This document shows positions 1 through 45,734 of a stretch of 64,000 nt of DNA, one piece after another (the first letter of the stretch is position 1; the number at the start of each line of letters is the position of its first letter). Both the position numbers and the translations under genes were made by a program. The stretch comes from Candidatus Falkowbacteria bacterium (GTDB lineage: Bacteria; Patescibacteriota; Patescibacteriia; Patescibacteriales; WJLG01): the NCBI GenBank assembly GCA_963747695.1, contig CAVVFV010000003.1, forward strand, positions 81,296-145,295, written 5' to 3'. The notes under the pieces were generated by a model. That model was not told where the DNA came from, ran no database searches, and saw only the letters and a program-made list of their open reading frames with translations.

Positions 1-454
1 TTAGCTTGGCGGCAAATGCCGGATTTTTCTTGGCTAATTCAGCAAATAATTCTTGAGCTGTCATTTTCTCTTTTTCAGCGCGTACCGGCAAATCAGGTTT
101 GATTTCCGTCAGTTGATAATTTTCCACGACTGCTTCCAGATATTGGCCCGAACCGCCGACGATGATCGGCAGCTTGCCTCGTTCCAAAATATCTTCAAGC
201 GCGGCAAACGCCTGCTGCTGATATTCGGCGACACTGAATATTTCCCCGGGATCGGCCACATCAATCAAGTGATATTTCACATCTCCGTATTCGGCCAGGT
301 CTTTTCCCGAGCCGACGTCCAGACCGCGGTAAACCTGCCGCGAATCGGCGGAAACTATTTCACCATTAAATTCCCGCGCCAAATCCACGCCAAGCTTGGT
401 TTTGCCGGAAGCGGTTGTCCCTAATATTACGACAATTTTTAAATTTTTTTGCAT
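1..454 (-). CDS. miaA: tRNA dimethylallyltransferase, N-terminal part; the gene runs off the left window edge
   Basis: Not in the ORF track because no stop lies inside the window. My translation from the ATG at 454-452 gives MQKNLKIVVILGTTASGKTKLGVDLAREFNGEIVSADSRQVYRGLDVGSGK... The P-loop GTTASGKT plus SADSRQVYRGLDVGSGK is the MiaA signature. Confidence 0.85.
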   Translation of the reverse strand, partial: MQKNLKIVVILGTTASGKTKLGVDLAREFNGEIVSADSRQVYRGLDVGSGKDLAEYGDVKYHLIDVADPGEIFSVAEYQQQAFAALEDILERGKLPIIVGGSGQYLEAVVENYQLTEIKPDLPVRAEKEKMTAQELFAELAKKNPAFAAKL

Positions 455-536
455 AATTGACTAACTGGCGATCATAATGATAAACTGATTCGATATTACC
501 AGAATTAAACGTTCATTTCAAATAAGGAGAATAAAA

Positions 537-1265
537 ATGGATAATGATATTAATCCGGTCTTCAACTTCAAAACTGGTTCAATTTTTTTGAGCGATTTTC
601 CAGCCGTGGCTGGCATCACTCCGATCGCCGCCGGTGATTTCAGCAAAAACAGCGTTCACGATGAATTCATTCTGGATCATCAGCTGACCAATCAGCTGGG
701 CGGGCATTCCTACCATAAAATCTACGACGGGCAAAGCAACGCGATCGTTTTCAGCAACGACTGCGGCGCTTATCGCTACTGCGGGGCGCTGATCAGTTAT
801 CAGGAAACCTACGAGCCGGAAGTCCTCATTTGCACGACCGCTGATAGCGCGACGGTAGTACTCGCGACCGAAGACCATAAACTGATCGCAATCATCTACT
901 GCGGCGAAGATGAAACCGCGGATTGGATCGTACCTAAGACCATCGAGGTGATCCGGCGAAGATGTAAAATTGATCCGGGAGAAATTGTGGTTGGCCTGTT
1001 CCCGGGAATTTGCCACCGTTGTAACGGATCAGTCGATGAGTCCCATCGCGACGATCCGTTGCTTCGTTTAGATGAAGGGATCGATCTCAAGCGCATCATC
1101 CAGCGGCAATTATGGGATAGCAATATTGATTCGTTGAAGGTCAGATATTCCCATCTTTGCTCCTATGAATCAAAATTCAGAGTAGACGGCAAGCCGATCC
1201 TTTATTCAGCCCGAAGGAATGATCAGCAGCGAAACGCCGTCTTCATTTCCCGCATCCCCTTTTAA
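537..1265 (+). CDS. PgeF/YfiH (laccase-domain, DUF152)-like protein with substituted conserved Cys/His positions
   Basis: 242 aa. The overall pattern matches: TTADSATVVL resembles TADCxP, AIIYCGEDE sits at the HAGWRG position, GICHRCNG, and C-terminal LCSY...YSARRND...RNAVFI resembles CT...FSYRRD...GR. Similarity is judged by eye only. Confidence 0.4.
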   Translation: MDNDINPVFNFKTGSIFLSDFPAVAGITPIAAGDFSKNSVHDEFILDHQLTNQLGGHSYHKIYDGQSNAIVFSNDCGAYRYCGALISYQETYEPEVLICTTADSATVVLATEDHKLIAIIYCGEDETADWIVPKTIEVIRRRCKIDPGEIVVGLFPGICHRCNGSVDESHRDDPLLRLDEGIDLKRIIQRQLWDSNIDSLKVRYSHLCSYESKFRVDGKPILYSARRNDQQRNAVFISRIPF

Positions 1266-4720: not shown

Positions 4721-4726
4721 CAAAAG

Positions 4727-4760
4727 AAAAAGACCGGCTCTTTTGGCCGGTCTTTTTATT
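4727..4760. terminator. Intrinsic terminator hairpin after tRNA-Leu, usable in both directions
   Basis: AGACCGGC (4731-4738) pairs with GCCGGTCT (4746-4753). It is flanked by an A-run on one side and a T-run on the other. Confidence 0.75.
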
Positions 4761-4874
4761 TTGGCTTTGGAGAATCGAACGTGAGGGGTTTGGGGAACGG
4801 CAGTTCCCCACCGTTTCCGAGGGATGGTATTGGAAGGGGTGGAAACCCCTTCCAAAGAGGAGCGCCAGCGACGA
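4761..4874 (-). repeat. GC-rich hairpin module (copy E1) inserted between tRNA-Leu and a duplicate of its 3' end
   Basis: 4761-4780 is an imperfect inverted copy of the tRNA-Leu T-loop/acceptor 3' strand. Hairpins sit at 4792-4809 and 4832-4853. The reverse complement aligns over about 90 nt with 37905-37985. Confidence 0.7.
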
Positions 4875-4899
4875 TTCGATTTCTCTCCATGCCCACAAA
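4875..4899 (+). repeat. Direct repeat of the tRNA-Leu 3' end (T loop to discriminator plus 4 nt)
   Basis: TTCGATTTCTCTCCATGCCCACAAA here versus TTCGATTCTCTCCATGCCCACAAA at 4701-4724; the only difference is one extra T. Confidence 0.85.
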
Positions 4900-4902
4900 T
4901 AA

Positions 4903-4930
4903 AAAACTTCGGCGTCTAGCCGGAGTTTTT
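4903..4930 (+). terminator. Second intrinsic terminator, after the duplicated tRNA-Leu 3' end
   Basis: CTTCGGC pairs with GCCGGAG around loop GTCTA, followed by a T-run. Confidence 0.6.
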
Positions 4931-4957: not shown

Positions 4958-5995
4958 TCATCTGGCAGATCGCGCATTAATGATATCGCCGATAATAATA
5001 TTAGCGGTCATCGCCAAGGGAATCGCCAGCACCGTGCCGACGATGCCGGCCAATTCAAAGCCGATCAGCATCACCGCGATGATAATGATCGGATTCAAAC
5101 CGATAATCCGTCCCATCACTTGCGGCACGATGACATGGCCTTCCAGCCAGTGAGTGAGATAATAGAGGACTGCGACGGCGATCACCAGCACCGGCGCCTG
5201 GATGAAGGAAACCAACAGCGCTGGAATGGCCGAAATCAGCGGCCCAAGATAAGGAATAAACTCGGCGATCCCGGCGATCAGCGCCAGAACCAAGGCGTAT
5301 TTGACTCCGATGATCAGCAAACCGACGTAAACGATAGTGAAAACGATCAACGATAAGAGCAACTGGCCTCTTAACCATCTGCCCACGCCGCGTTCAATCC
5401 GATCGGACAGACTCAAAGCGTAAGGCTGATTCTCCGGCGGGACGACCGACCTGATCAATTTATTCAGCGCCCGATCTTCGACTAACATATAAAACGTCAA
5501 GACCATAATCAGGATAAATGACAGAATTCCGCCAAAAAAAGTCACCAGCGAAGAAAAAATCTTTCCCGCCGCTCCCTGCCAATTTGCTCCCAGCGAGTTT
5601 ACTTCATCGACCAGCGACGCGTTGGTCTGATTACTATCCGAGTAACCGTCCAAGAAAGACAGGCTGTTCGTCACCTTGGAAATATATTCCGGGGAATTCC
5701 TGGAAAATTCAACGACTTCCCGGGCAACCGGCGGCACAAACAGATAAACCGCCATGCCGATTAAAAAAATAACAATCAAATAAAGGATCGCTGCCGACAA
5801 AACGCGGGGAATTTTTCGCCGCTGCAACCAGTCAACCGCCGGCTGGATGGCGCTGGAGAGGAGAAAAGCGACGAAAAGAATAACTAAGACGCTTCTGACC
5901 ATAAATAAAAAATAAATCGCCGCCAAAACGACGATTATTTTTAAAATTCCCTGCCAGGAAATATTAATATTGATTACCTTTTTACTTTCTTCCAT
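4958..5995 (-). CDS. AI-2E family transporter (PerM/UPF0118-type permease)
   Basis: 345 aa with multiple TM segments. The conserved C-terminal block ...LIAGIAEFIPYLGPLISAIPALLV... is typical of the family. Confidence 0.75.
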   Translation of the reverse strand: MEESKKVININISWQGILKIIVVLAAIYFLFMVRSVLVILFVAFLLSSAIQPAVDWLQRRKIPRVLSAAILYLIVIFLIGMAVYLFVPPVAREVVEFSRNSPEYISKVTNSLSFLDGYSDSNQTNASLVDEVNSLGANWQGAAGKIFSSLVTFFGGILSFILIMVLTFYMLVEDRALNKLIRSVVPPENQPYALSLSDRIERGVGRWLRGQLLLSLIVFTIVYVGLLIIGVKYALVLALIAGIAEFIPYLGPLISAIPALLVSFIQAPVLVIAVAVLYYLTHWLEGHVIVPQVMGRIIGLNPIIIIAVMLIGFELAGIVGTVLAIPLAMTANIIIGDIINARSAR

Positions 5996-7720: not shown

Positions 7721-10700
7721 CTATTTCGCGTCTACAACCTCGATTGAGTCGGAGAATTCTTTTTTAATGGCGCCGACCAGATTGTCATCGTTCCGCACCC
7801 GAAAACCGGCCTGAAAGATCACCGGTTCGTTATTGCGCGTTATCTTGAAGTAAACCAGGCTCGGACCGGTCGCCCCGGCGAGCAGCTCTTTCAAATGGGC
7901 CGCTTCAGTCGGATCAAGCTCGCGTTTAAAGATTAATTTCAAGGGCGGCGGCTGGATCCGCGGCGGCGGTTCGGCCGGCTGGGCATTGGGACGATACATT
8001 CCGTTGCCATTGCCGTTATTGCCATAACCGTTGAATTGCCTTTTGGCCTGCACTTCGATCTTTTTAAAATCATCGATTGATTCAGCCAGCCTGTCCAACG
8101 ACAAGACGGCGGCTTTGTCCACCAGCAATTTCACTTCCTGATCCTTATCGGAAATTTTTCCCTGCACCAAGACGACTTTGCCCTCCTGCCAAAGTTCAAC
8201 GGTTGATTCGTAGAGATTGGGAAACACTAAAAGCTCGGTTGAAGCGACCGCGTCTTCGATCTTGACGAACAGCATCGGTTTATTGCTCCGAGTGATGATC
8301 TTCTTGATCAGCGTGATCACGCCGGCGGCGCGAACCGCGTCTTCGTTCAAGTGGGATGCCAGGCTGTTGATCGGAACGATCAGCTCTCCCAGTTGTTTCT
8401 TAAAATCGTTGAAAGGATGAGCGGAAAGATAAAGTCCCAACAGTTCTTTCTCCCAGGATAATTTTTCCTGTTGGCCGACAGTCGCCGACTTATCCAGCTT
8501 GATCCTCCCGGGCATATTGTTGGTGGAATTGCCGAAAAGGCTCGATTGTTTAGAATCCCGATTGCGGCTGACTTCTTTATTGTATTCCAGAAGTGCTTCC
8601 ATATTGGCCAAAAAGAGGCCGCGGTCGCCGAATTGGTCGAGCGCGCCGCATTTCGTCAGAGATTCCAGAGATTTTTTATTCAAATCCTTGTCCACGATCC
8701 TTTCCAAAAAATCAAAAATATCCCGATATTTGCCGTTAGCTTTCCGCTCTTCGATAATCACATCAACGATATGGCCGCCGACATTCTTAATCGCGTTCAA
8801 ACCGAAGCGGATGAATTCTGCGCTGCTATTTTCATCCTTGACCACGGTGAACGAAGCGAAAGATTCGTTGACGTCCGGCGAAAGAACTTTGATCCCCATA
8901 TTGCGGCATTCTTCGATCTCGATGGCGATGCGATCGATGTCCTGCTGGTCCGAGGTCAACAAGGCAGCCATAAATTCCGCCGGATAATGAGCCTTGAGAT
9001 AGGCCGTTTGATAGCTGGTCATCGCGTAACAAGCGGCATGCGCGCGGCAAAAACCGTAACCGGCGAACGGCTCGATGAAAGAGAAAACCTGCTCGCCCAA
9101 TTCTTTGGGCACGCCGTTCTTGACGCAACCGTCAACGAATTTTTCTTTCTGTTCGGCGAGCAGCTTAGCGATCTTCTTGCCCATCGCTTTGCGCAAAACA
9201 TCGGCCTGACCCATGGTGAAGCCGGCCAGATCGCGGGAAATCTGCATCACCTGCTCCTGATAAACCGCCACGCCATAAGTTTTGTCCAGGATCGGTTTCA
9301 ATTTAGGATGAAGATATTTTACTTTTTTGGTGCCGTGTTTGCCGGCGATATAATCAGGGATCCACTCCATCGGTCCGGGACGGTAGAGCGCGCCCATCGC
9401 GATGATATCTTCAAACACGGTCGGTTTGAGATCTTTCAAATACCGCTTCATCCCCGAAGATTCGAACTGGAAGACGCCGGTGGTTTCGCCGTCTTGAAAC
9501 AATTTATAAGTCAATTTATCATCCAGCGGCAGCTGATCCATTTTCAAGTCGACGCCCCGGGTCCGTTTGATGATCTTCAACGACGATTCGATGATGGTCA
9601 AGTTCTTCAAACCCAAAAAATCCATTTTCAATAAACCCAGATCCTCGATCGGATGCAGCGAATATTGCGAAACCACGGTCAGGTCGGAAGTCGAAGCATA
9701 TTGGATCGGTACGTATTCGGTCAGCGGCTCTTTGGTGATCAAAACTCCGCAGGCGTGCGTCGAGGCATGGCGGGCGACACCTTCCAAGCGCAGCGCGTAA
9801 TCGATTATTTTTTTGGCATCCGGTTCCTTGTCATAGAGATCCCGGAATTCTTTGATATTTTCCAGCGCTTCGGAAAGGTCGGTGAACATCGGGATGGCTT
9901 TGGCTAATTTATCGCAAAAATCATAAGGGATATCCAGTACGCGGCCGACATCGCGCATTGAAGCGCGGGCGGCGATCGTTCCAAAAGTGATGATCTGCGA
10001 AACATGATCCTTGCCGTATTTTCCCTCGACGTAGCGAATTACGGCGTCGCGGCCGGTGTCAGCGAAATCCGTATCGATATCAGGCATGGAGATGCGTTCC
10101 GGATTCAAGAATCTTTCGAAAAGGAGGTCATGGACGATCGGATCGATATTAGTGATACCTAAGAGATAACAAACCAGCGAACCGGCGCCGGAGCCGCGGC
10201 CGGGACCGACAATGATCCCCGAATCTTTGGCCCAATTGATAAAATCGGCCACGATCAGAAAATAAGACGGCCAACCCATTTTTTTTATTACCGATATTTC
10301 ATAATCCAGCCGTTCTTTTCTCACCTTGTCCATTTCTTCGTAAATTTTGCCGTAACGTTTCCGGCAACCCTCATGGGCCAGATGTTCGAGATAAGAAATT
10401 CCATCAAAACCATCCGGCACAGGAAAAAACGGCAGCAGAACCTGTCCGAGAGCGATTTCAACATTGCACATCTCCGCAATCTTTATTGTATTGGCAGCGG
10501 CTTCCGGAATATCTTTAAATGCAGCGATCATTTCCTCGTTAGAACGCAAGGAAAAATCCGTACCCATCATATTCATCCGGTCTTCATCCTCGACTTTCTT
10601 TTTATTCTGCAGGCAAAGCAAAATGTCCTGCGCTTCGGCGTCATCCTTGCGGAAATAATGGACGTCATTGGTAGCAACCAGCGGAACATTCAATTCCTGG

Positions 10701-22571: not shown

Positions 22572-22758
22572 CTCCTCGGTTGAAATTTACTATATTTTAT
22601 AATACCGAGGAAAAAAAGTAAACAATTACGGGATTGACTGATTGATATATTTAGTTTATACTATTTACAAATCCAATTCGGATTTTATTTTATTTTTTCA
22701 GCCAGAGGCTGATCCGCCTTGGGCGGAAATTCTTAATTCTTAATTTGTAATTGATTTA

Positions 22759-22830
22759 GGTCCCTTCGTCTAACGGTTAGGACATCAGGTTCTCATCCTG
22801 AAAATAGGGGTTCGATTCCCCTAGGGACTA
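22759..22830 (+). tRNA. tRNA-Glu(CTC)
   Basis: Hand fold: acceptor GGTCCCT/AGGGACT, anticodon arm TCAGG-TTCTCAT-CCTGA, T arm AGGGG-TTCGATT-CCCCT. Confidence 0.9.
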
Positions 22831-22836
22831 CTAATT

Positions 22837-22865
22837 TAAAAACTCGGCCTTTCGCCGAGTTTTTA
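22837..22865 (+). terminator. Terminator after tRNA-Glu
   Basis: AAAAACTCGGC-CTTTC-GCCGAGTTTTT. Confidence 0.75.
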
Positions 22866-22870
22866 AATTA

Positions 22871-23034
22871 GTCATCTTCTATATTGGGAGTCGAACTGGT
22901 TGCGCGCGAGATATGAGCGCCGACGGAAGGAGGCGCGAATAATCGAGCGACGCTGACCATTCGGGGAATGGTCAGCGGGCAACCCCGGACAAGAGAGGCC
23001 GCCGCTTTTCCGGCGGCGGCCGAACACGACGACA
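22871..23034 (-). repeat. GC-rich hairpin module (copy E3) between tRNA-Glu and a duplicate of its 3' end
   Basis: Hairpins at 22952-22976 and 22998-23020. The reverse complement reads GCCGCCGGAAAAGCGGCGGCCTCTCTTGTCCGGGGT, versus GCCGCCGGAATGCGGCTCGCTCCCTTGTCCAGGGT at 37755-37789. A T-loop-like GGAGTCGAAC sits at 22888-22897. Confidence 0.65.
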
Positions 23035-23048
23035 CCCCTAGGGACTAC
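23035..23048 (+). repeat. Direct repeat of the tRNA-Glu 3' end
   Basis: CCCCTAGGGACTAC is identical to 22818-22831. Confidence 0.8.
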
Positions 23049-23056
23049 GGATAAAT

Positions 23057-23088
23057 AAAAATACTGACTTAATATGGTCAGTATTTTT
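23057..23088 (+). terminator. Second terminator, after the duplicated tRNA-Glu end
   Basis: ATACTGAC pairs with GTCAGTAT, followed by a T-run. Confidence 0.6.
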
Positions 23089-23114
23089 ATTTATATAAAC
23101 TTATTCTTAATACA

Positions 23115-26600: not shown

Positions 26601-26652
26601 ATGGCGTAGGCGGGCAATATTTTGCGCGCTGATAAATTACTCGGCCGTAATC

Positions 26653-26674
26653 GGAACGCAAAGTATTGCGTTCC
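26653..26674. repeat. Hairpin repeat GGAACGCAA-N4-TTGCGTTCC, copy 1 of 3
   Basis: GGAACGCAAAGTATTGCGTTCC. Near-identical copies sit at 29073-29093 and 29165-29186. Confidence 0.8.
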
Positions 26675-26684
26675 TACGTATTTT

Positions 26685-28994: not shown

Positions 28995-29072
28995 TTTTTT
29001 GTTATTTAATTATTAATTATTAGCTATTTATATTTTACCACCTTCGCCCCTCAACTCCAACTTTCGTCCATT

Positions 29073-29093
29073 GAACGCAAGGTATTGCGTTCC
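29073..29093. repeat. Hairpin repeat, copy 2
   Basis: GAACGCAAGGTATTGCGTTCC. Confidence 0.8.
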
Positions 29094-29164
29094 TACCAAG
29101 CGGTAATTTTTTTACGCCATAGGCACGCAATATTTTGCGTGCTTTTAAATTTTAGTCCGCGATT

Positions 29165-29186
29165 GGAACGCAAGGTATTGCGTTCC
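29165..29186. repeat. Hairpin repeat, copy 3
   Basis: GGAACGCAAGGTATTGCGTTCC. Confidence 0.8.
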
Positions 29187-29198
29187 TACGGGGCTTTC

Positions 29199-37547: not shown

Positions 37548-37663
37548 ACGATTCCTCCGCTTCCATTGGATTGGGTTTATTATTAAAAAATGTGCTTTCC
37601 ACACCAAACATTAACCAGATAAATTATCATAATTAGCACTATTTTGTCAAATGATTTTCTTTC

Positions 37664-38003
37664 GCCATGGGCGGCCGACGCTCGTCCCGCCGCGGCGGGA
37701 TCGTTCCCTCGCGAACTTTGTCTTGCTTCCAACCAGCACACACCTCGGTCACTCGCCGCCGGAATGCGGCTCGCTCCCTTGTCCAGGGTCAGCACCAACG
37801 TGCCCCGGCACGTTGGCGATCGCTCAGCTGTTCGCCGCTCGTTCCCTCGCGGCTCTCGCTTCGCTCCTGACCAGCGCACAAAAATTTGAAGCTTCGCTTT
37901 GTAAGGGGCCTCCGCCCCTTCCAATACCATCCCCCGAAAACAGTGGGAAACTTACGTTTCCCAAACCCTTCCTAGTTCAAATCTTGTTGGGACCCGCGCA
38001 CCA
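37664..38003 (+). repeat. Composite GC-rich structured module (copy E2, the longest), ending in an inverted copy of the tRNA-Lys 3' end
   Basis: The region is open in several frames on both strands and clearly GC-richer than its flanks. Hairpins sit at 37755-37770, 37795-37816, 37903-37920 and 37945-37962. 37975-38003 equals the tRNA-Lys T-loop-to-CCA sequence with a 5-nt insertion. Confidence 0.7.
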
Positions 38004-38038
38004 ATAAAAAATACCGCTTTTGCGGTATTTTTTATTGG
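38001..38038. terminator. Perfect 17-bp palindromic terminator shared by tRNA-Lys and module E2
   Basis: CCAATAAAAAATACCGC-TTTT-GCGGTATTTTTTATTGG. Confidence 0.75.
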
Positions 38039-38111: not shown

Positions 38112-38149
38112 GAACTTATTGATCAGATTTTACTTTTCTTATATTTTCA

Positions 38150-38226
38150 AGCGACACTACTCTACCCGCCTCGCTGAAGGCGGACCAGCTGCTTACCCCG
38201 CCCTTTTGGCGGGGAGCTATGGGCGC
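38150..38226 (-). pseudogene. Decayed copy of the tRNA-Lys 5' part, interrupted by two GC hairpins
   Basis: GAGCTATGGGCGC at 38214-38226 is identical to 38099-38111. The minus strand reads GCGCCCATAGCTC-[CCCCGCC..GGCGGGG]-..AGCTGGT-[CCGCC..GGCGG]-GTAGAG. No anticodon arm or T arm follows. Confidence 0.6.
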
Positions 38227-38299
38227 TCGACGATTTTAGATTGGCGATTTTCGATTTACGATTAAGTTTACTTGTTATTAATAATAACAAAAAAGGCGG

Positions 38300-39359: not shown

Positions 39360-40067
39360 ATGAAATTTTCTATTGTTATTCCGGTTTTCAATGAGGCGGA
39401 AAATATTACCGCGGCGATGAACGCGCTCTTGATCCAAACAGTCGGGAGAAATAATTTCGAGATCATCGTCGTCGACAATAATTCCACCGATGCTAGCTTT
39501 GTCATCGCCGAACGTTCCGGCGCCGATCTGGTGATCAAGGAGACCAGACAGGGCACGAACATGGCGAGACAGGCCGGCCTGGCCGTAGCTAAAGGCGAAA
39601 TCATCGCCTTTTTGGATATGGATTGCGTGCCGCCGCCCGGCTGGTTGGCCAAAATGGAAAGCGATCTGGCTGATCCAAGCATTGCGGCGGTTTCCGGCCC
39701 GTTCGATTATGAATTTACCGGAGTGAAAAAATATCTGGAAATAATTTACACTAACTTTATGCTGCCCAACATCTCGGCGGTCCTGAAATTATTATTCGGA
39801 AAAAAATCCGGCGTGCTCATCGGCGGAAACTTTGCCGCCCGCCGCAGCACTTTTACCGCCATCGGCGGCCTGCCCGATCTTGATTTTTGGGGAGACGATG
39901 CGGCTATTGCCATGCTGATTTCGCGCCGGGTCGGCCCGGTCCGCTTTGATCCCAAGTTGCGCGTTAAAAGTTCGCCGCGGCGCTTTGCCCGAGTCGGATT
40001 CTTAAAGTTGGTCGTGCAGTACGAAGTGGAATATTTTAAAACTTTTTTTTCTAAAAAGTATGATTAG
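39360..40067 (+). CDS. Family 2 glycosyltransferase
   Basis: KFSIVIPVFNEAENI, VVDNNSTD and FLDMDC motifs. Confidence 0.85.
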   Translation: MKFSIVIPVFNEAENITAAMNALLIQTVGRNNFEIIVVDNNSTDASFVIAERSGADLVIKETRQGTNMARQAGLAVAKGEIIAFLDMDCVPPPGWLAKMESDLADPSIAAVSGPFDYEFTGVKKYLEIIYTNFMLPNISAVLKLLFGKKSGVLIGGNFAARRSTFTAIGGLPDLDFWGDDAAIAMLISRRVGPVRFDPKLRVKSSPRRFARVGFLKLVVQYEVEYFKTFFSKKYD

Positions 40068-40074
40068 TGATTTT

Positions 40075-40680
40075 TCATTCCTTCTCGATCTTATTAGCTA
40101 GTCCGGCCGTCAATCTCTGATATATTATATAGATGAGAAAAATCAATAAGACCAGAATCCAGATAAAATACTGGCTATCGGCCAATAACCCGCTCAAGGC
40201 CCGATAGGCGCGACCGGAAAAATAGCCGATGGCCAATAAGACAAGTACTTTGGGAACGCCGATCGACAACGACGCTCTGATGAACTTTCTGATCGAGATG
40301 CGCGATGAGCCGATCGTCAGCAGGCCGGGAATGGGCAGCAAGGGAGAAAGCTTAACTAAAAGCATCGCCTTGCCCAGATGATTTTGCAAAAGATTTTCCA
40401 GCTTGGCGAAACGCCGATCGTTCAAGCCGAATTTATGGCCATGGCTTTTGATCCAGGTATTGCGGCTGGCATAACCGATAGTATAATAGATGAGATCGTT
40501 GGCTAAATCCGCACTCAACGCCAAAACTAAAATGAGCAAAGGATTGAAATATCCCAAAGCCACCGCAACTCCGCCGGCGATCGCCACTGAAACTCCTTCG
40601 ACAAAAACGGCCGCAAAGAAAAGCAGGTAGCCGTGCGAAATCACCCAATGCACCAATAAAATAAAAAAATGGCTATGCAT
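40075..40680 (-). CDS. DedA/VTT-like membrane protein
   Basis: 201 aa, multi-TM. The VFVEG... and LVKLSPLLPIPGLLTIGSSRISIRKF blocks resemble DedA. Confidence 0.55.
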   Translation of the reverse strand: MHSHFFILLVHWVISHGYLLFFAAVFVEGVSVAIAGGVAVALGYFNPLLILVLALSADLANDLIYYTIGYASRNTWIKSHGHKFGLNDRRFAKLENLLQNHLGKAMLLVKLSPLLPIPGLLTIGSSRISIRKFIRASLSIGVPKVLVLLAIGYFSGRAYRALSGLLADSQYFIWILVLLIFLIYIIYQRLTAGLANKIEKE

Positions 40681-40739
40681 AACTTTATCTATTGATACTG
40701 CGTAATAACTAAAACTTTTTAATTTTTTAAATGTGATTT

Positions 40740-41450
40740 ATGAAGCTTTCCGTGGTCATCCCGGCCTACAATGAAGCAAGTACCATCGCCAGCGCGATTA
40801 AAGCTCTTCTGGCTCAAACGACGGCGAAAAATGATTTTGAAATCATCGTCGTCGACAATAACTCCGCCGATGATACCGCCGCAATCGCCACGGCGGCCGG
40901 CGCCGATTTGGTGATTGCCGAAAAAAAACAAGGTTCAAATATGGCCCGTCAGGCCGGATTAAATAAAGCTCGGGGTGAAATTATCGCCTTTCTGGATTCC
41001 GACTCGATTCCGCCGCCGAATTGGCTGGAATCAATCGCCAATGACCTTGGCACGAAAGACTGCGCTGCAGTTTCCGGCCCCTATGATTACGGTTTCACCG
41101 GCTGGCAAAAATTTTTAGATTTGCTTTATACCAGATTCGTCATGTCCAGGATTCCGCCTTGTTTGAAATTATTCTTCGGGAAAAATACCGGGATGATTAT
41201 CGGCGGAAATTTCGCCGCCCGGCGCACGGTCCTGGCGGCCATCGGCGGCCTGCCCGCTCTTGATTATTGGCAGGGCGATGACGCCGCCATCGCGACGCTA
41301 ATCGCTCGGAAGGCCGGACCGATCCTCTTTGACACTAAACTTATCGTTAAAACTTCTCCCCGCCGCTTTGAAAAAACCGGCTTCTTACGCCAGAACCTCA
41401 AATACATGGCGGTCTATTTAAAAATATATTTTGACCGAGAATACTCTTAA
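40740..41450 (+). CDS. Family 2 glycosyltransferase, paralog of 39360-40067
   Basis: KLSVVIPAYNEASTI, VVDNNSADD and FLDSDS. It is collinear with the first copy over its whole length. Confidence 0.85.
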   Translation: MKLSVVIPAYNEASTIASAIKALLAQTTAKNDFEIIVVDNNSADDTAAIATAAGADLVIAEKKQGSNMARQAGLNKARGEIIAFLDSDSIPPPNWLESIANDLGTKDCAAVSGPYDYGFTGWQKFLDLLYTRFVMSRIPPCLKLFFGKNTGMIIGGNFAARRTVLAAIGGLPALDYWQGDDAAIATLIARKAGPILFDTKLIVKTSPRRFEKTGFLRQNLKYMAVYLKIYFDREYS

Positions 41451-42413: not shown

Positions 42414-43382
42414 ATGCCAATTATTGAAACGAGGGATCTAACCAAAAAATACGGCGAACTCACGGCCGTTAACAAACTTAATCTTTCCATCGAGGAAGGA
42501 GAAATTTTCGGTTTGCTCGGCCCGAACGGCGCCGGCAAATCAACCACCCTGATGATGCTGGCGACTCTGATCCCTCCCACGTCCGGCACCGCCAAGGTCA
42601 ACGGTTTTGATATCGTCAAACAAAAAGACAAAGTTCGCGGTTCGATCGGGATGGTTTTCCAGGATCCTTCCAGCGACGACACGCTGACCGGTTATGAAAA
42701 TTTGAAACTCCACGGGATGTTGTATAATATTCCGCCGGTTCAACGCGAAGAAAGGATTAAGGAAGTTCTCGAACTCGTGGAATTGACCGCCCGCAAAGAC
42801 GAACTGGTCAAAAATTATTCCGGCGGCATGCGCAGGCGCTTGGAATTGGGGCGAGGCTTGATGCATTATCCGAAAGTCTTATTTCTTGACGAGCCGACGC
42901 TTGGTCTTGATCCGCAAACCCGCGACCATCTCTGGAGCTATATTATGGAGCTGGCTCGGAAGATGAATATCAGCGTCATCATCACTACTCATTATATGGA
43001 AGAAGCGGATATGCTTTGCGACCGGGTCGCCATCATTGATGCCGGCAAGATCGTGGCGCTGGATGCACCGGCCAAGCTTAAAGAAGTAATCGGCGGCGAC
43101 GTCGTCACCATCAAGATCAAGGAACCGAATCTGGAGGCAGTAAAGCGATTGCCTTATGTTTCTAAATCAAGCCTGAAAAACGATATTGTGTCTCTGACGG
43201 TGGCCAACGCTAACGAGCATCTGGCGGAAATTTTGCAGCTGATCGGCAAAGTCGATTCAGTCGAAGTTCACATCCCAACCTTAAGCGACGTCTTTTTGTA
43301 TTATACCGGCCGGGAAATCCGTGAAGACACGCCCGAAGGCGGCTGGGCCAATCGAGTCATTAACTTTCGGTCAAAACATTAA
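42414..43382 (+). CDS. ABC transporter ATP-binding protein (ABC-2/DrrA type)
   Basis: Walker A GPNGAGKST, signature YSGGMRRRL, Walker B LFLDEPTLGLD. Confidence 0.9.
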   Translation: MPIIETRDLTKKYGELTAVNKLNLSIEEGEIFGLLGPNGAGKSTTLMMLATLIPPTSGTAKVNGFDIVKQKDKVRGSIGMVFQDPSSDDTLTGYENLKLHGMLYNIPPVQREERIKEVLELVELTARKDELVKNYSGGMRRRLELGRGLMHYPKVLFLDEPTLGLDPQTRDHLWSYIMELARKMNISVIITTHYMEEADMLCDRVAIIDAGKIVALDAPAKLKEVIGGDVVTIKIKEPNLEAVKRLPYVSKSSLKNDIVSLTVANANEHLAEILQLIGKVDSVEVHIPTLSDVFLYYTGREIREDTPEGGWANRVINFRSKH

Positions 43383-43385
43383 AAA

Positions 43386-43474
43386 AATATCCAATATCAA
43401 ATAATCAATATTTTTAAAAAATATTTAAATATTAAAATATTTTTTGGATATTTGTTATTTGATATCGGATATTT
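43386..43474. repeat. AT-rich palindromic spacer with the ATATCCAATATCAAATAA theme, copy 1
   Basis: AATATCCAATATCAAATAATCAATA ... TTGGATATTTGTTATTTGATATCGGATATT. The same words recur at 45640-45734. Confidence 0.75.
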
Positions 43475-43487
43475 GTGAATATTTAAT

Positions 43488-44893: not shown

Positions 44894-44923
44894 TTGACTA
44901 TTGAACGTTCGTTCAACTATACT
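44894..44923 (+). promoter_or_regulatory. lexA promoter (TTGACT-18 nt-TATACT) with an embedded LexA (Cheo-type) box
   Basis: GAACGTTCGTTC at 44903-44914 fits GAAC-N4-GTTC and lies between the -35 and -10 elements. Confidence 0.7.
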
Positions 44924-44924
44924 T

Positions 44925-45012
44925 GAGGGGGAAACCCTTGGTCGGGTTTCCCCCTCAATACTCCCCCTTCCAAGGTGGCTCGTGGCGCGGAATGAATCCG
45001 CCGCCACTCACC
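44925..45012 (+). repeat. Two GC-rich hairpins in the lexA 5' UTR; possible partial member of the module family
   Basis: A 13-bp perfect stem pairs GAGGGGGAAACCC with GGGTTTCCCCCTC. The following CAATACTCCCCC resembles CCAATACCATCCC at 37921-37933. A second hairpin has a GGAATGAATCC centre. Confidence 0.35.
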
Positions 45013-45068: not shown

Positions 45069-45635
45069 ATGAATAAAAATTATCTGCGCAAAATTTCTAA
45101 ATTCTTCCACGACCGCCGGCGCATGCCGAGTTATCAGGAAATAATGGCTGCTTGCGGTTTCAAATCCAAGAACGCCGCTTATTATCTGGTTAATAAACTG
45201 ATCGGACAAGGCTTGCTCAAAAAAGATCGCACTGGAAAATTAATTCCTCTGGCGGCTTTTTTTGCCATACCGATTTTGGGCACGGTCGAAGCCGGTTTCC
45301 CTTCTCCGGCCGAAGAAGAGACGACTGACCTCTTAAGCCTGGATGAATATCTGATTGAAAACAAAGAAGCGACTTTCATCTTGAAAGTTTCCGGCGAATC
45401 GATGATTGATGCCGGCATTATGCCCGGCGATATGGTTCTGGTGGAGCGCGGCCGCGATCCCCGCGACGGCGACATTGTCATCGCCGAAGTGGACAATGCC
45501 TGGACGATGAAATATTTCCGCAAAAAAGGGAATAAGATAATTCTGGAACCGGCCAACAAAAAATTCCCGCCGATCGTCCCCAAAAGCGACCTTCGCGTCG
45601 CGGCGGTCGTCCGGTCGGTGATACGGAAATATTAA
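45069..45635 (+). CDS. lexA: LexA repressor (S24 peptidase)
   Basis: N-terminal winged-helix region, followed by VSGESMIDAGIMPGDMVLVER and a later Lys in TMKYF. Confidence 0.9.
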   Translation: MNKNYLRKISKFFHDRRRMPSYQEIMAACGFKSKNAAYYLVNKLIGQGLLKKDRTGKLIPLAAFFAIPILGTVEAGFPSPAEEETTDLLSLDEYLIENKEATFILKVSGESMIDAGIMPGDMVLVERGRDPRDGDIVIAEVDNAWTMKYFRKKGNKIILEPANKKFPPIVPKSDLRVAAVVRSVIRKY

Positions 45636-45639
45636 AACA

Positions 45640-45734
45640 AATATCCAATATCAAATAACCAATACTCAAAACAATATTAAAATATTTTAATATTAAATTA
45701 TTTTTTGGTTATTTGATATTTTTTATTGGTTATT
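45640..45734. repeat. AT-rich palindromic spacer with the ATATCCAATATCAAATAA theme, copy 2
   Basis: AAATATCCAATATCAAATAACCAATA ... TTGGTTATTTGATATTTTTTATTGGTTAT. Confidence 0.75.

Follow-up and report, generated by a model that had tools for sequence, protein, structure and literature searches.

In the 64,000-nucleotide (nt) stretch of Candidatus Falkowbacteria bacterium contig CAVVFV010000003.1 analysed here (positions 81,296 to 145,295; hereafter the window), the gene for tRNA-Glu(CTC) is followed by a 203-nt insert (22832-23034) with no conserved open reading frame (ORF), and then by a second copy of its own 3' end. We favour, tentatively and at somewhat less than an even chance, the reading that this insert is a miniature, non-coding and non-autonomous integrative cassette that recombined into the T-loop/3' end of the tRNA gene, with a long hairpin composed of the tRNA end, a terminator and an inverted copy of the tRNA end as its attachment site. 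Cassettes of this kind would form an undescribed family at tRNA 3' ends in a group of Patescibacteria. We prefer this reading because the locus shows a direct repeat and a rebuilt tRNA end with an imported terminator, because empty alleles and tandem stacks exist, and because the orientation is fixed. A direct repeat of a tRNA 3' end is described as a classic footprint of integration into tRNA genes in an excerpt of PMC9897764, which cites Reiter 1989 and Williams 2002. Throughout, X denotes the last part of a tRNA gene, from the T-loop to the 3' end, X' an inverted copy of it, T a terminator and M the module.

Direct and inverted copies of the tRNA-Glu end enclose a GC-rich module

The tRNA-Glu(CTC) gene lies among housekeeping genes, with def and fmt upstream, and its last 22 nt (X) are the source of both downstream copies (Table 1). 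An initial annotation of the window had outlined most of this arrangement, and its outline was largely borne out. The tRNA span it gave is that of the Rfam match, its first terminator (22837-22865) is contained in a longer stem of 19 pairs, and its second terminator corresponds to a hairpin, T2. The reverse-oriented T-loop-like sequence, GGGAGTCGAAC, is present, but one base away from where it had been placed. Its reverse complement, GTTCGACTCCC, equals the tRNA-Glu sequence GTTCGATTCCC at 10 of 11 positions. The guanine-cytosine (GC)-rich block reaches 23034, has a GC fraction of 0.52-0.53 vs 0.32-0.43 in the flanks, and contains the two hairpins that had been described, at 22952-22976 and at 22998-23020 (about 22997-23021 in our folding). 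The 14-nt copy of the tRNA end is exact: CCCCTAGGGACTAC is present twice in the window (22818-22831 and 23035-23048), and 0.01 matches are expected in shuffled sequences with one mismatch permitted.

Table 1. Positions of the tRNA-Glu locus parts and of the sister units in the window
Feature	Position	Strand	Remarks
tRNA-Glu(CTC)	22759-22831	+	ARAGORN; Rfam match 22759-22830, 64 bits
H1, hairpin X-T1-X', long imperfect palindrome	22810-22896	+	fold -45.7 kcal/mol
T1, intrinsic-terminator hairpin	22830-22872	+	19 pairs, then T-run; begins in the last tRNA bases
Spacer, 13 nt, AT-rich	22873-22885	+	worn inverted copy of acceptor 3' strand; unpaired side of the H1 internal loop
X', GGGAGTCGAAC	22886-22896	+	inverted T-loop and start of T-stem 3' strand; 5' strand of closing stem P0
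Module B, subtype B1	22896-23032	+	137 nt, GC-rich; covariance model R1, 155 bits
P0 3' strand, CGACGACACCC, running into X copy	23027-23048	+	X copy 23035-23048, exact match to last 14 nt of tRNA-Glu
T2, second terminator hairpin	about 23051-23094	+	symmetric A/T-rich arms; predicted fold
Unit behind tRNA-Leu(CAA)	4722-4903	+	T1, X' GGAGAATCGAAC, module A 4783-4863, direct 3'-end copy 4877-4896, second terminator
Array behind tRNA-Lys(TTT)	37640-38035	-	T1, 24-nt inverted 3'-end copy including CCA, module A 37891-37971, worn direct copy, module B subtype B2 37740-37874, more GC-rich sequence

The tRNA end, the first terminator and X' together form one hairpin (H1), in which the T-loop and the 3' strand of the T-stem pair with X' as an outer stem, an internal loop spans the acceptor 3' strand, and the 19-bp terminator stem lies inside. 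Relatives that lack the cassette (L002 and L038; loci from other contigs carry L numbers) have a single terminator directly after tRNA-Glu, and we propose that T2 is the original terminator of this gene. No sigma-70-like promoter was detected between T1 and the module, which has hairpins on both sides. Every copy of the module has open frames on either strand because the block is GC-rich, and no ORF is shared across the copies, as alignment gaps of 1-3 nt break any common frame. Coding potential of the module was therefore rejected.

The initial annotation had also remarked that the hexamer CGACGA immediately precedes the duplicated tRNA end at both the Glu and the Leu loci. It is indeed found there (23027-23032 and 4869-4874), but it is not a junction signal, because it is a common hexamer (65 in the window vs 39 expected) and every homologous copy has CGCGGAA in its place. 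In the window it is simply the 3' strand of the closing stem described below.

A decayed tandem duplicate of tRNA-Glu, which the initial annotation had asked to be checked, would account for a 14-nt repeat identical to the tRNA 3' end and for the T-loop-like sequence within the insert. However, no tRNA-like signal was obtained in 22832-23050 even at E <= 10, the T-loop-like piece is inverted, and the intervening 137 nt are homologous to modules behind the unrelated tRNA-Lys and tRNA-Ser genes and not to a tRNA body. The null result with tRNA models, together with the covariance-model homology, refutes this explanation, and we regard it as extremely unlikely.

Two modules recur behind different tRNA genes

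As the initial annotation had stated, the Glu insert resembles part of the long sequence next to tRNA-Lys. Local alignment of the insert with the second section of that sequence gave z = 6.8, with none of 500 dinucleotide shuffles scoring as well, and no similarity was seen in alignment with the reverse strand. The Lys copy (37740-37874, minus strand) scored 119.7 bits with a covariance model of the module. The Glu and Leu inserts are dissimilar (z = 1.9 against dinucleotide shuffles), also as described, and the Leu insert is 83% identical to the first section of the Lys sequence. The Glu locus thus shares its architecture with the Leu and Lys loci; it carries what we call module B, and the Leu locus carries module A. 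What had been regarded as one long copy at tRNA-Lys does contain the homologous sections, but is better read as a tandem array (A, B and more) with a decayed junction, since GCTTCAAATTTTTGTGCGC, which follows module A there, is a degraded direct repeat of the tRNA-Lys 3' end and is fused to module B at its initial CTGG. The end of the array (module C) showed no significant similarity to an element upstream of tRNA-Lys, described below, or to the first module of L013.

The organism's own genome was surveyed over the 64-kb window, and further copies came from other Patescibacteria contigs. One metagenome scan and one scan of a genome collection were made with exact patterns, and the copy counts are lower bounds. 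The module B pattern consisted of conserved unpaired bases; for module A a 19-mer was used in the genome collection. Eleven matches in the metagenome scan included three members, L013, L015 and L016. Fourteen matches to the module A 19-mer in the genome collection comprised 13 chance matches in unrelated phyla and one real copy, in L023 (Patescibacteria metagenome-assembled genome (MAG) STD1_31). The sets obtained in this way hold six copies of module B and three of module A. The covariance model of module B (R1) was built from five copies, and the sixth (L033) was detected afterwards. Further examples, which the initial annotation had asked for, therefore exist: in addition to tRNA-Lys(TTT) in the window, module B lies behind tRNA-Lys(CTT) in L016, tRNA-Ser(GCT) in L013, the orthologous tRNA-Glu in L033, and a sequence no longer called as a tRNA in L015. 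The L033 copy, half broken by an insertion and a partial duplication, scored 65 bits; all other members scored 120-156 bits. The L023 unit (300-760, minus strand) has module A with a terminator, X' and a direct T-loop/3'-end copy, and it lies downstream of a gene that by eye resembles a Vsr-type endonuclease, after about 200 nt of GC-rich hairpins.

Three loci from GC-rich organisms, L006, L009 and L011, were rejected as members: they have in common only a GGGG-loop hairpin followed by ACCCYGGACAAGGGAG, and were taken to be chance matches or unrelated. The likeness to module B is probably a coincidence of the search pattern. The hairpin with ACCCYGGACAAGGGAG, for which no Rfam match was obtained, lies at about 4700-4800 in L009, about 6140-6240 in L011 and 1805-1842 in L006; in L009 and L011 the surrounding sequence, about 200 nt that look non-coding, is conserved between the two.

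In units behind an intact tRNA the order is constant (X, T, X', M, X). Where the tRNA is intact, both X' and the direct X match the local tRNA (Glu, Lys-CTT, Ser and Lys-TTT). The match of X' extends over 10 of 11 positions at Glu in the window, 11 of 11 at Glu in L033 (where the perfect X' is GGGAATCGAAC), 11 of 12 at Leu, 15 nt at Ser, and 24 nt including CCA, with a 4-nt bulge, at Lys-TTT; the direct repeats in L016 and L013 are 16-19 nt long. X' is well preserved over the T-loop and the 3' strand of the T-stem and worn over the acceptor strand, so that X-T-X' folds as one long hairpin with an internal loop. This three-part hairpin was found in seven units behind six tRNAs; the outer stem measures 10-15 bp and the inner one 19-24 bp, and the folding energies are -39 to -56 kcal/mol.

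Each of the seven units that follow an intact tRNA has its own T. The flank past the last X varies: it has no hairpin in L013, L016 and L033, and has terminator T2 in the window. The terminator therefore appears to travel with the cassette, and, given also the terminator behind the empty relatives' tRNA-Glu, we parse the cassette as T + X' + M + the proximal X. The natural parse leaves the last tRNA-end copy and its flank as original host sequence. Behind tRNA-Ser in L013, two complete units with unrelated modules stand in tandem, in the order X T1 X' M1 X T2 X' M2 X. T1 and T2 are alike at Leu and in L015.

The best pair of module copies is 86% identical, and copies diverge over a range of 53-86%. 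The window Glu module is 82% identical to that of L016 (Lys-CTT) and 83% to that of L015, but 53% to that of the orthologous Glu locus in L033, which is 72% identical to the L013 Ser module. The window and L033 have homologous tRNA leaders, T1 hairpins and X' flanks, yet their module subtypes differ, which suggests that modules are moved or swapped separately from the hairpin part, which is specific to the tRNA. The 13-nt spacer is about 80% conserved between the two (GTCATCTTCTATATT vs GTCATCTCTAAAAT), and the T1 stem is fully kept in L033 by compensatory changes (TAATTT/AAATTA vs TGAATT/AATTCA; CTCGGC/GCCGAG vs GACTGGC/GCCAGTC).

Occupied and empty tRNA-Glu loci in related genomes

Eight relatives were sampled by Fmt, which is 75-83% identical to that of the window; the closest named ones are MAGs labelled "Patescibacteria group bacterium". 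Near-identical strains were sought via neighbouring proteins, and nothing usable was obtained. Among the relatives examined, only L033 has the cassette at tRNA-Glu in common with the window. L002/L003, L004, L035 and L038 have tRNA-Glu without it (Fmt 77-83% identical), L031 has a different arrangement, and the sequence fetched for L034 and L039 contains no tRNA-Glu. The cassette is missing in five of the six relatives with an identified tRNA-Glu, and in four of these five (all but L038) the tRNA is sequence-identical to that of the window, as it is in L033. Empty and filled alleles therefore exist at the same tRNA-Glu in related genomes, and the cassette is dispensable, as it is missing behind sequence-identical tRNA genes. 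Fmt identities form a star-like pattern, and L033 is not the sister of the window; several losses or gains are therefore needed. One metagenome source of L013, L015 and L016 also holds L037, a close relative of the window organism (Fmt 83%), so that these copies need not be from distant lineages. Proteins shared between these three loci and the window organism were sought as a measure of relatedness; none was found.

Small genes with a GIY-YIG nuclease domain lie by fmt or abut tRNA-Glu in L004 (3562-3990 and about 5050-5300, flanked by small GC hairpins), L031 (7851-8108) and L035 (2071-2472). Their clustering at the tRNA-Glu flank could be linked to turnover there.

Module B has a conserved fold on the tRNA-sense strand

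Alignment of five module B copies with MAFFT and folding with RNAalifold gave 42 base pairs, 17 of which had compensatory changes. The predicted structure consists of five conserved helices with a GGAA tetraloop and tandem G.A pairs. In a six-copy alignment guided by the covariance model, which favours structure as it was fitted to that model, 92% of cells were paired vs 73% after shuffling and 29-43% with slid partners; 24 of the 42 pairs were changed on both sides, and none of 500 shuffles reached any of the five measures. A conserved single-strand fold, whether of RNA or of single-stranded DNA (ssDNA), is present beyond these controls.

The strand that folds is the tRNA-sense strand; in all six copies its fold is more stable, by 6-19 kcal/mol, than that of the complement. 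There are 10 G.T pairs and 4 A.C pairs, and hairpin loops of the GNRA type are confined to this strand. Module A has GGCA/GTAA/GAGA and GGAA/GGAG/GGAA, and module B has C-GGAA-G with tandem G.A pairs next to it. One helix of module A retains four G.U pairs. The stretches GAGCG, CGGGG and GGACAAG are unpaired and invariant. In every copy X' pairs with the downstream X to form a stem, P0, that closes the module. Relative to the tRNA and to L033, an A-to-G change in X' of the window is offset by a T-to-C change opposite, and the pair is kept; the two changes compensate, indicating that P0 pairing matters beyond ancestry.

The main alternative to a cassette is a family of expressed, structured small RNAs, in which X'-M-X would be transcribed in the direction of the tRNA, starting at the strong tRNA promoter and reading through T1, or at a promoter that escaped recognition. 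Such an RNA would have five helices closed by the T-loop-derived stem, with the acceptor 3' strand as a free tail, and its role would lie in tRNA biology, for instance that of a decoy or an antisense partner for the T-arm or 3' end, or of a processing signal; the tRNA-end copies would then be functional and not scars. The strong covariation, the stability, pair bias and loops of the sense strand, the tandem G.A and conserved G.U pairs, the invariant single-stranded motifs and the compensatory change in the closing stem are all as anticipated for an RNA, and an expressed small RNA is the best explanation of this RNA-like fold. Copies differ widely and yet nearly all fold, as for genes under selection, and the orientation is always that of the tRNA. 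On the other hand, the module lies beyond a terminator hairpin of 19-24 bp with a T-run, with no promoter-like site between them; the cassette is missing in most relatives, behind an identical tRNA in four of them; and the L033 copy is half broken. A terminator in every unit and none after the last X fits T+X'+M+X better than a transcript X'+M+X+T, and no Rfam family corresponds to the module even at E <= 10. We therefore consider an expressed small RNA somewhat unlikely. At the Rfam 15 gathering score only tRNAs were detected in the window and eight loci, and at E <= 10 all matches to the insert in the Glu region, the Lys region and L023 lay well below the family gathering scores. A tmRNA or RNase P origin, raised by a likeness of GGACAAGAGAGG to sequences of these RNAs, was dropped, as neither ARAGORN nor Rfam gives support for it.

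The fold also bears on whether the units are passive scars, that is, remnants of mostly deleted islands or prophages, or duplications of tRNA end and terminator with a GC-rich filler, now immobile and functionless. Direct repeats of tRNA ends are common as footprints of integration, according to the same excerpt of PMC9897764, and T1 and T2 resemble one another in two units. In L016 (3050-3190), tRNA-Arg(TCG) is followed after a 20-nt gap by CGGGTTCGAGTCCTGACGGGCGCAC, a bare and worn direct repeat of its own T-arm and 3' end; no module separates the two, and this site could be emptied or never filled. Random leftovers, however, would lack homology between loci, the 24 compensated pairs and a closing stem in every copy, and would not yield a module of about 137 nt with the same boundaries behind four different tRNAs. 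A last X without terminator, as in L013 and L016, speaks against duplication of the tRNA end together with its terminator. We judge the units quite unlikely to be scars of this kind.

A model for integration at the T-loop

In the cassette reading, the element would comprise T, an X' that copies the target from the T-loop on, a GC-rich folded M of about 100-140 nt, and the proximal part of the direct X. Its free form would bear X-T-X' as a long hairpin whose stem imitates the double-stranded end of the tRNA gene, and a recombinase acting in trans would swap strands between this hairpin and the tRNA gene, in or next to the T-loop. The order X-T-X'-M-X is the one that results when a hairpin recombines with its target through a single arm, as for the CTX phage at dif; attC sites are similar. 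The tRNA would retain a working 3' end and acquire the T1 of the cassette, and the original 3' end (23035-23048) and terminator T2 would be displaced downstream. As the target would be regenerated, further cassettes could stack in tandem. The module, closed by the X':X stem, would be recognised by the mobilising machinery on the tRNA-sense strand, as ssDNA or RNA; a single-stranded intermediate would agree with the strand specificity of the fold. We infer such an intermediate, as we do recombination itself, the crossover position and the identity of the enzyme.

Several observations weigh against this reading. Pfam scans of 43 ORFs in the window revealed no recombinase, transposase or reverse transcriptase, and the fetched loci likewise yielded none. 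No autonomous parent and no free or circular form was found, with 0 matches to the A 19-mer and the B pattern in viral contigs, and blastn in distant mode gave no match in phage and plasmid collections. There are no near-identical copies, and hence no sign of a recent burst. The L023 unit has no intact adjacent tRNA. The GNRA-type loops, tandem G.A and four G.U pairs are RNA-like, and an expressed RNA is a simpler account of them. Finally, both X' and X track the local tRNA, and a simple integrase model would need tRNA-specialised cassettes that swap modules, or local homogenisation. Possible routes by which the ends come to match each tRNA are a crossover in the universal, palindromic T-loop core TTCGAA and homogenisation against the adjacent tRNA.

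A different mode of mobility would be that of a non-autonomous HUH-type (IS200/IS605-like) derivative, with T1/H1 as the left-end hairpin, the last module helix as the right-end one, and the module as a scaffold like that of omega-RNA, using the flanking tRNA end as its 3' guide. Hairpins near both ends, the strand-specific fold, a 137-nt module followed directly by 14-19 nt of target, and the lack of classical terminal inverted repeats and short target duplications would suit such an element. Yet elements of this type make and carry no long target copies, and here inverted and direct copies of the tRNA end are present; the putative guide is partly buried in the closing stem and would match the intact tRNA gene, amounting to self-targeting. 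TnpA, TnpB and IscB were absent from the window, and no omega-RNA-type Rfam match was obtained at E <= 10. An origin of this type appears very unlikely.

The cassette reading can be extended to a programmable, protein-less mobile cassette of Candidate Phyla Radiation bacteria, in which the target would be written as a hairpin of direct and inverted tRNA ends, the module would recruit host machinery through one strand, the element would be re-aimed at any tRNA by rewriting the hairpin, and the universal, palindromic T-loop TTCGAA would be the common crossover. We offer this extension as a speculation that is itself unlikely. If the cassette reading is true, the tRNA genes of these tiny genomes serve as docking sites where very small elements without genes pile up, each supplying a terminator and a tRNA-end copy, and this would be the smallest tRNA-targeted integration yet, with the target chosen by sequence mimicry and without a dedicated protein gene. 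If the RNA reading is true instead, the modules are a class of RNA that has not been described, is supported by covariation and is linked to tRNA 3' ends, in a phylum with a scarcely explored RNA biology. In either case, partial tRNA copies and GC-rich islands can confuse tRNA annotation, and the tRNA 3' flanks are marked as rearrangement hot spots in Patescibacteria.

Other repeats at tRNA genes and in the window

Upstream of tRNA-Lys in the window (38112-38240, minus strand) lies a partial tRNA-Lys copy that covers the 5' half, from the acceptor 5' strand through the D-arm to the start of the anticodon stem, with its D-loop broken by GC-rich hairpins; an AT-rich spacer follows, and then the real tRNA. 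The same construct is found upstream of tRNA-Lys(CTT) in L016 (4166-4240), with a common hairpin, CTTCAGCGAGGCGGGTAGAG (alignment score 62); nothing comparable is present at the Glu and Leu loci.

A double hairpin, CAGCC-NNN-GGCTG, one base, then CCGCC-NNN-GGCGG, lies in the tRNA-Glu leader of the window (22699-22731) and of L004 (4993-5026), and also in L031 (about 7725-7765, minus strand) and L013 (3815-3845, 4098-4128 and 4165-4195). In L013 and L031, partial copies of tRNA 3' ends lie behind tRNA-Arg and tRNA-Glu, and the double hairpin is inserted in direct orientation in their T-loop (GGTTC[..]GATTCC); one L013 copy bears the 3' end of another tRNA. The double hairpin looks like a second, smaller class of module associated with tRNA ends.

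Elsewhere in the window, a 34-nt element with the hairpin GGAACGCAAGGTATTGCGTTCC (repeat family D12) has three copies, 76-88% identical, at 26645-26678, 29064-29097 and 29157-29190, in the spacers that surround two large genes for secreted proteins. Inverted and direct repeats rich in AT (AAATATCCAATATCAAATAA...; 43381-43476 and 45635-45731; pairs I3, I5, I6 and I13, family D6) bracket an ABC-2 permease gene and a LexA-like (Peptidase_S24) gene, with a GC-rich hairpin block at 44920-45010. Paralogous family-2 glycosyltransferase genes at 39360-40067 and 40740-41450, within 39360-41450, have a spacing of 1380 nt and are 72-86% identical in patches; a VTT-domain gene on the opposite strand separates them.

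Comparison with known systems

Non-coding RNAs from tRNA precursors, such as bacterial 3' external transcribed spacers and mascRNA-type mimics, are also structured elements directly downstream of a tRNA with tRNA-like sequence. They are part of the precursor, however, upstream of the terminator, whereas the module lies beyond a strong terminator and is dispensable in relatives.

Repetitive extragenic palindromes (REP), bacterial interspersed mosaic elements (BIME), Rickettsia palindromic elements and miniature inverted-repeat transposable elements (MITEs) are likewise non-coding and place GC-rich hairpins in AT-rich spacers after genes, near terminators. They have many near-identical copies with fixed ends and no tie to tRNA ends, whereas the cassette has few, diverged copies, ends that vary with the tRNA and a multi-helix fold. 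Its tRNA-dependent ends, its duplication of 14-22 nt of tRNA with an inverted copy, and a best pair of 86% identity also set it apart from MITEs.

With IS200/IS605 miniatures (palindrome-associated elements) and the guide RNAs of TnpB and IscB the cassette shares hairpin ends, strand-specific structure and a scaffold of about 130-150 nt abutting the target. Unlike them, it carries target copies, has no transposase or nuclease nearby, and matched no described scaffold family.

The attP site of the CTX phage at dif, used by the host Xer recombinases, and the attC sites of integrons are closer in design. There, too, a hairpin stem with an unpaired centre mimics the target duplex, the order is target copy, loop, inverted arm, element and target copy, tandem arrays form, folding is strand-specific, and the units are non-coding or promoterless. 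The target of the cassette, in contrast, is a tRNA 3' end and not dif or attI, IntI and phage genes are lacking, and what the cassette shows is strand asymmetry of its fold and no single-stranded DNA form. The attC core RYYYAAC/GTTRRRY is not reproduced, as the cassette ends are ATTCGAAC and GTTCGAAT/GAATCC with one extra base, and share with attC only the T-loop-derived AAC/GTT.

Islands and prophages that target tRNA genes by a tyrosine integrase, and their cis-mobilisable derivatives, also leave an insert between an intact tRNA and a direct copy of its 3' end. In both, the intact gene is rebuilt from element-borne sequence, the target is regenerated so that arrays can form, and presence is patchy. 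The cassette differs from them in being 200 nt and not kilobases long, with no genes and no integrase inside or beside it, and it adds to their design an inverted target copy, a fold kept by covariation, and the use of one module at several tRNAs.

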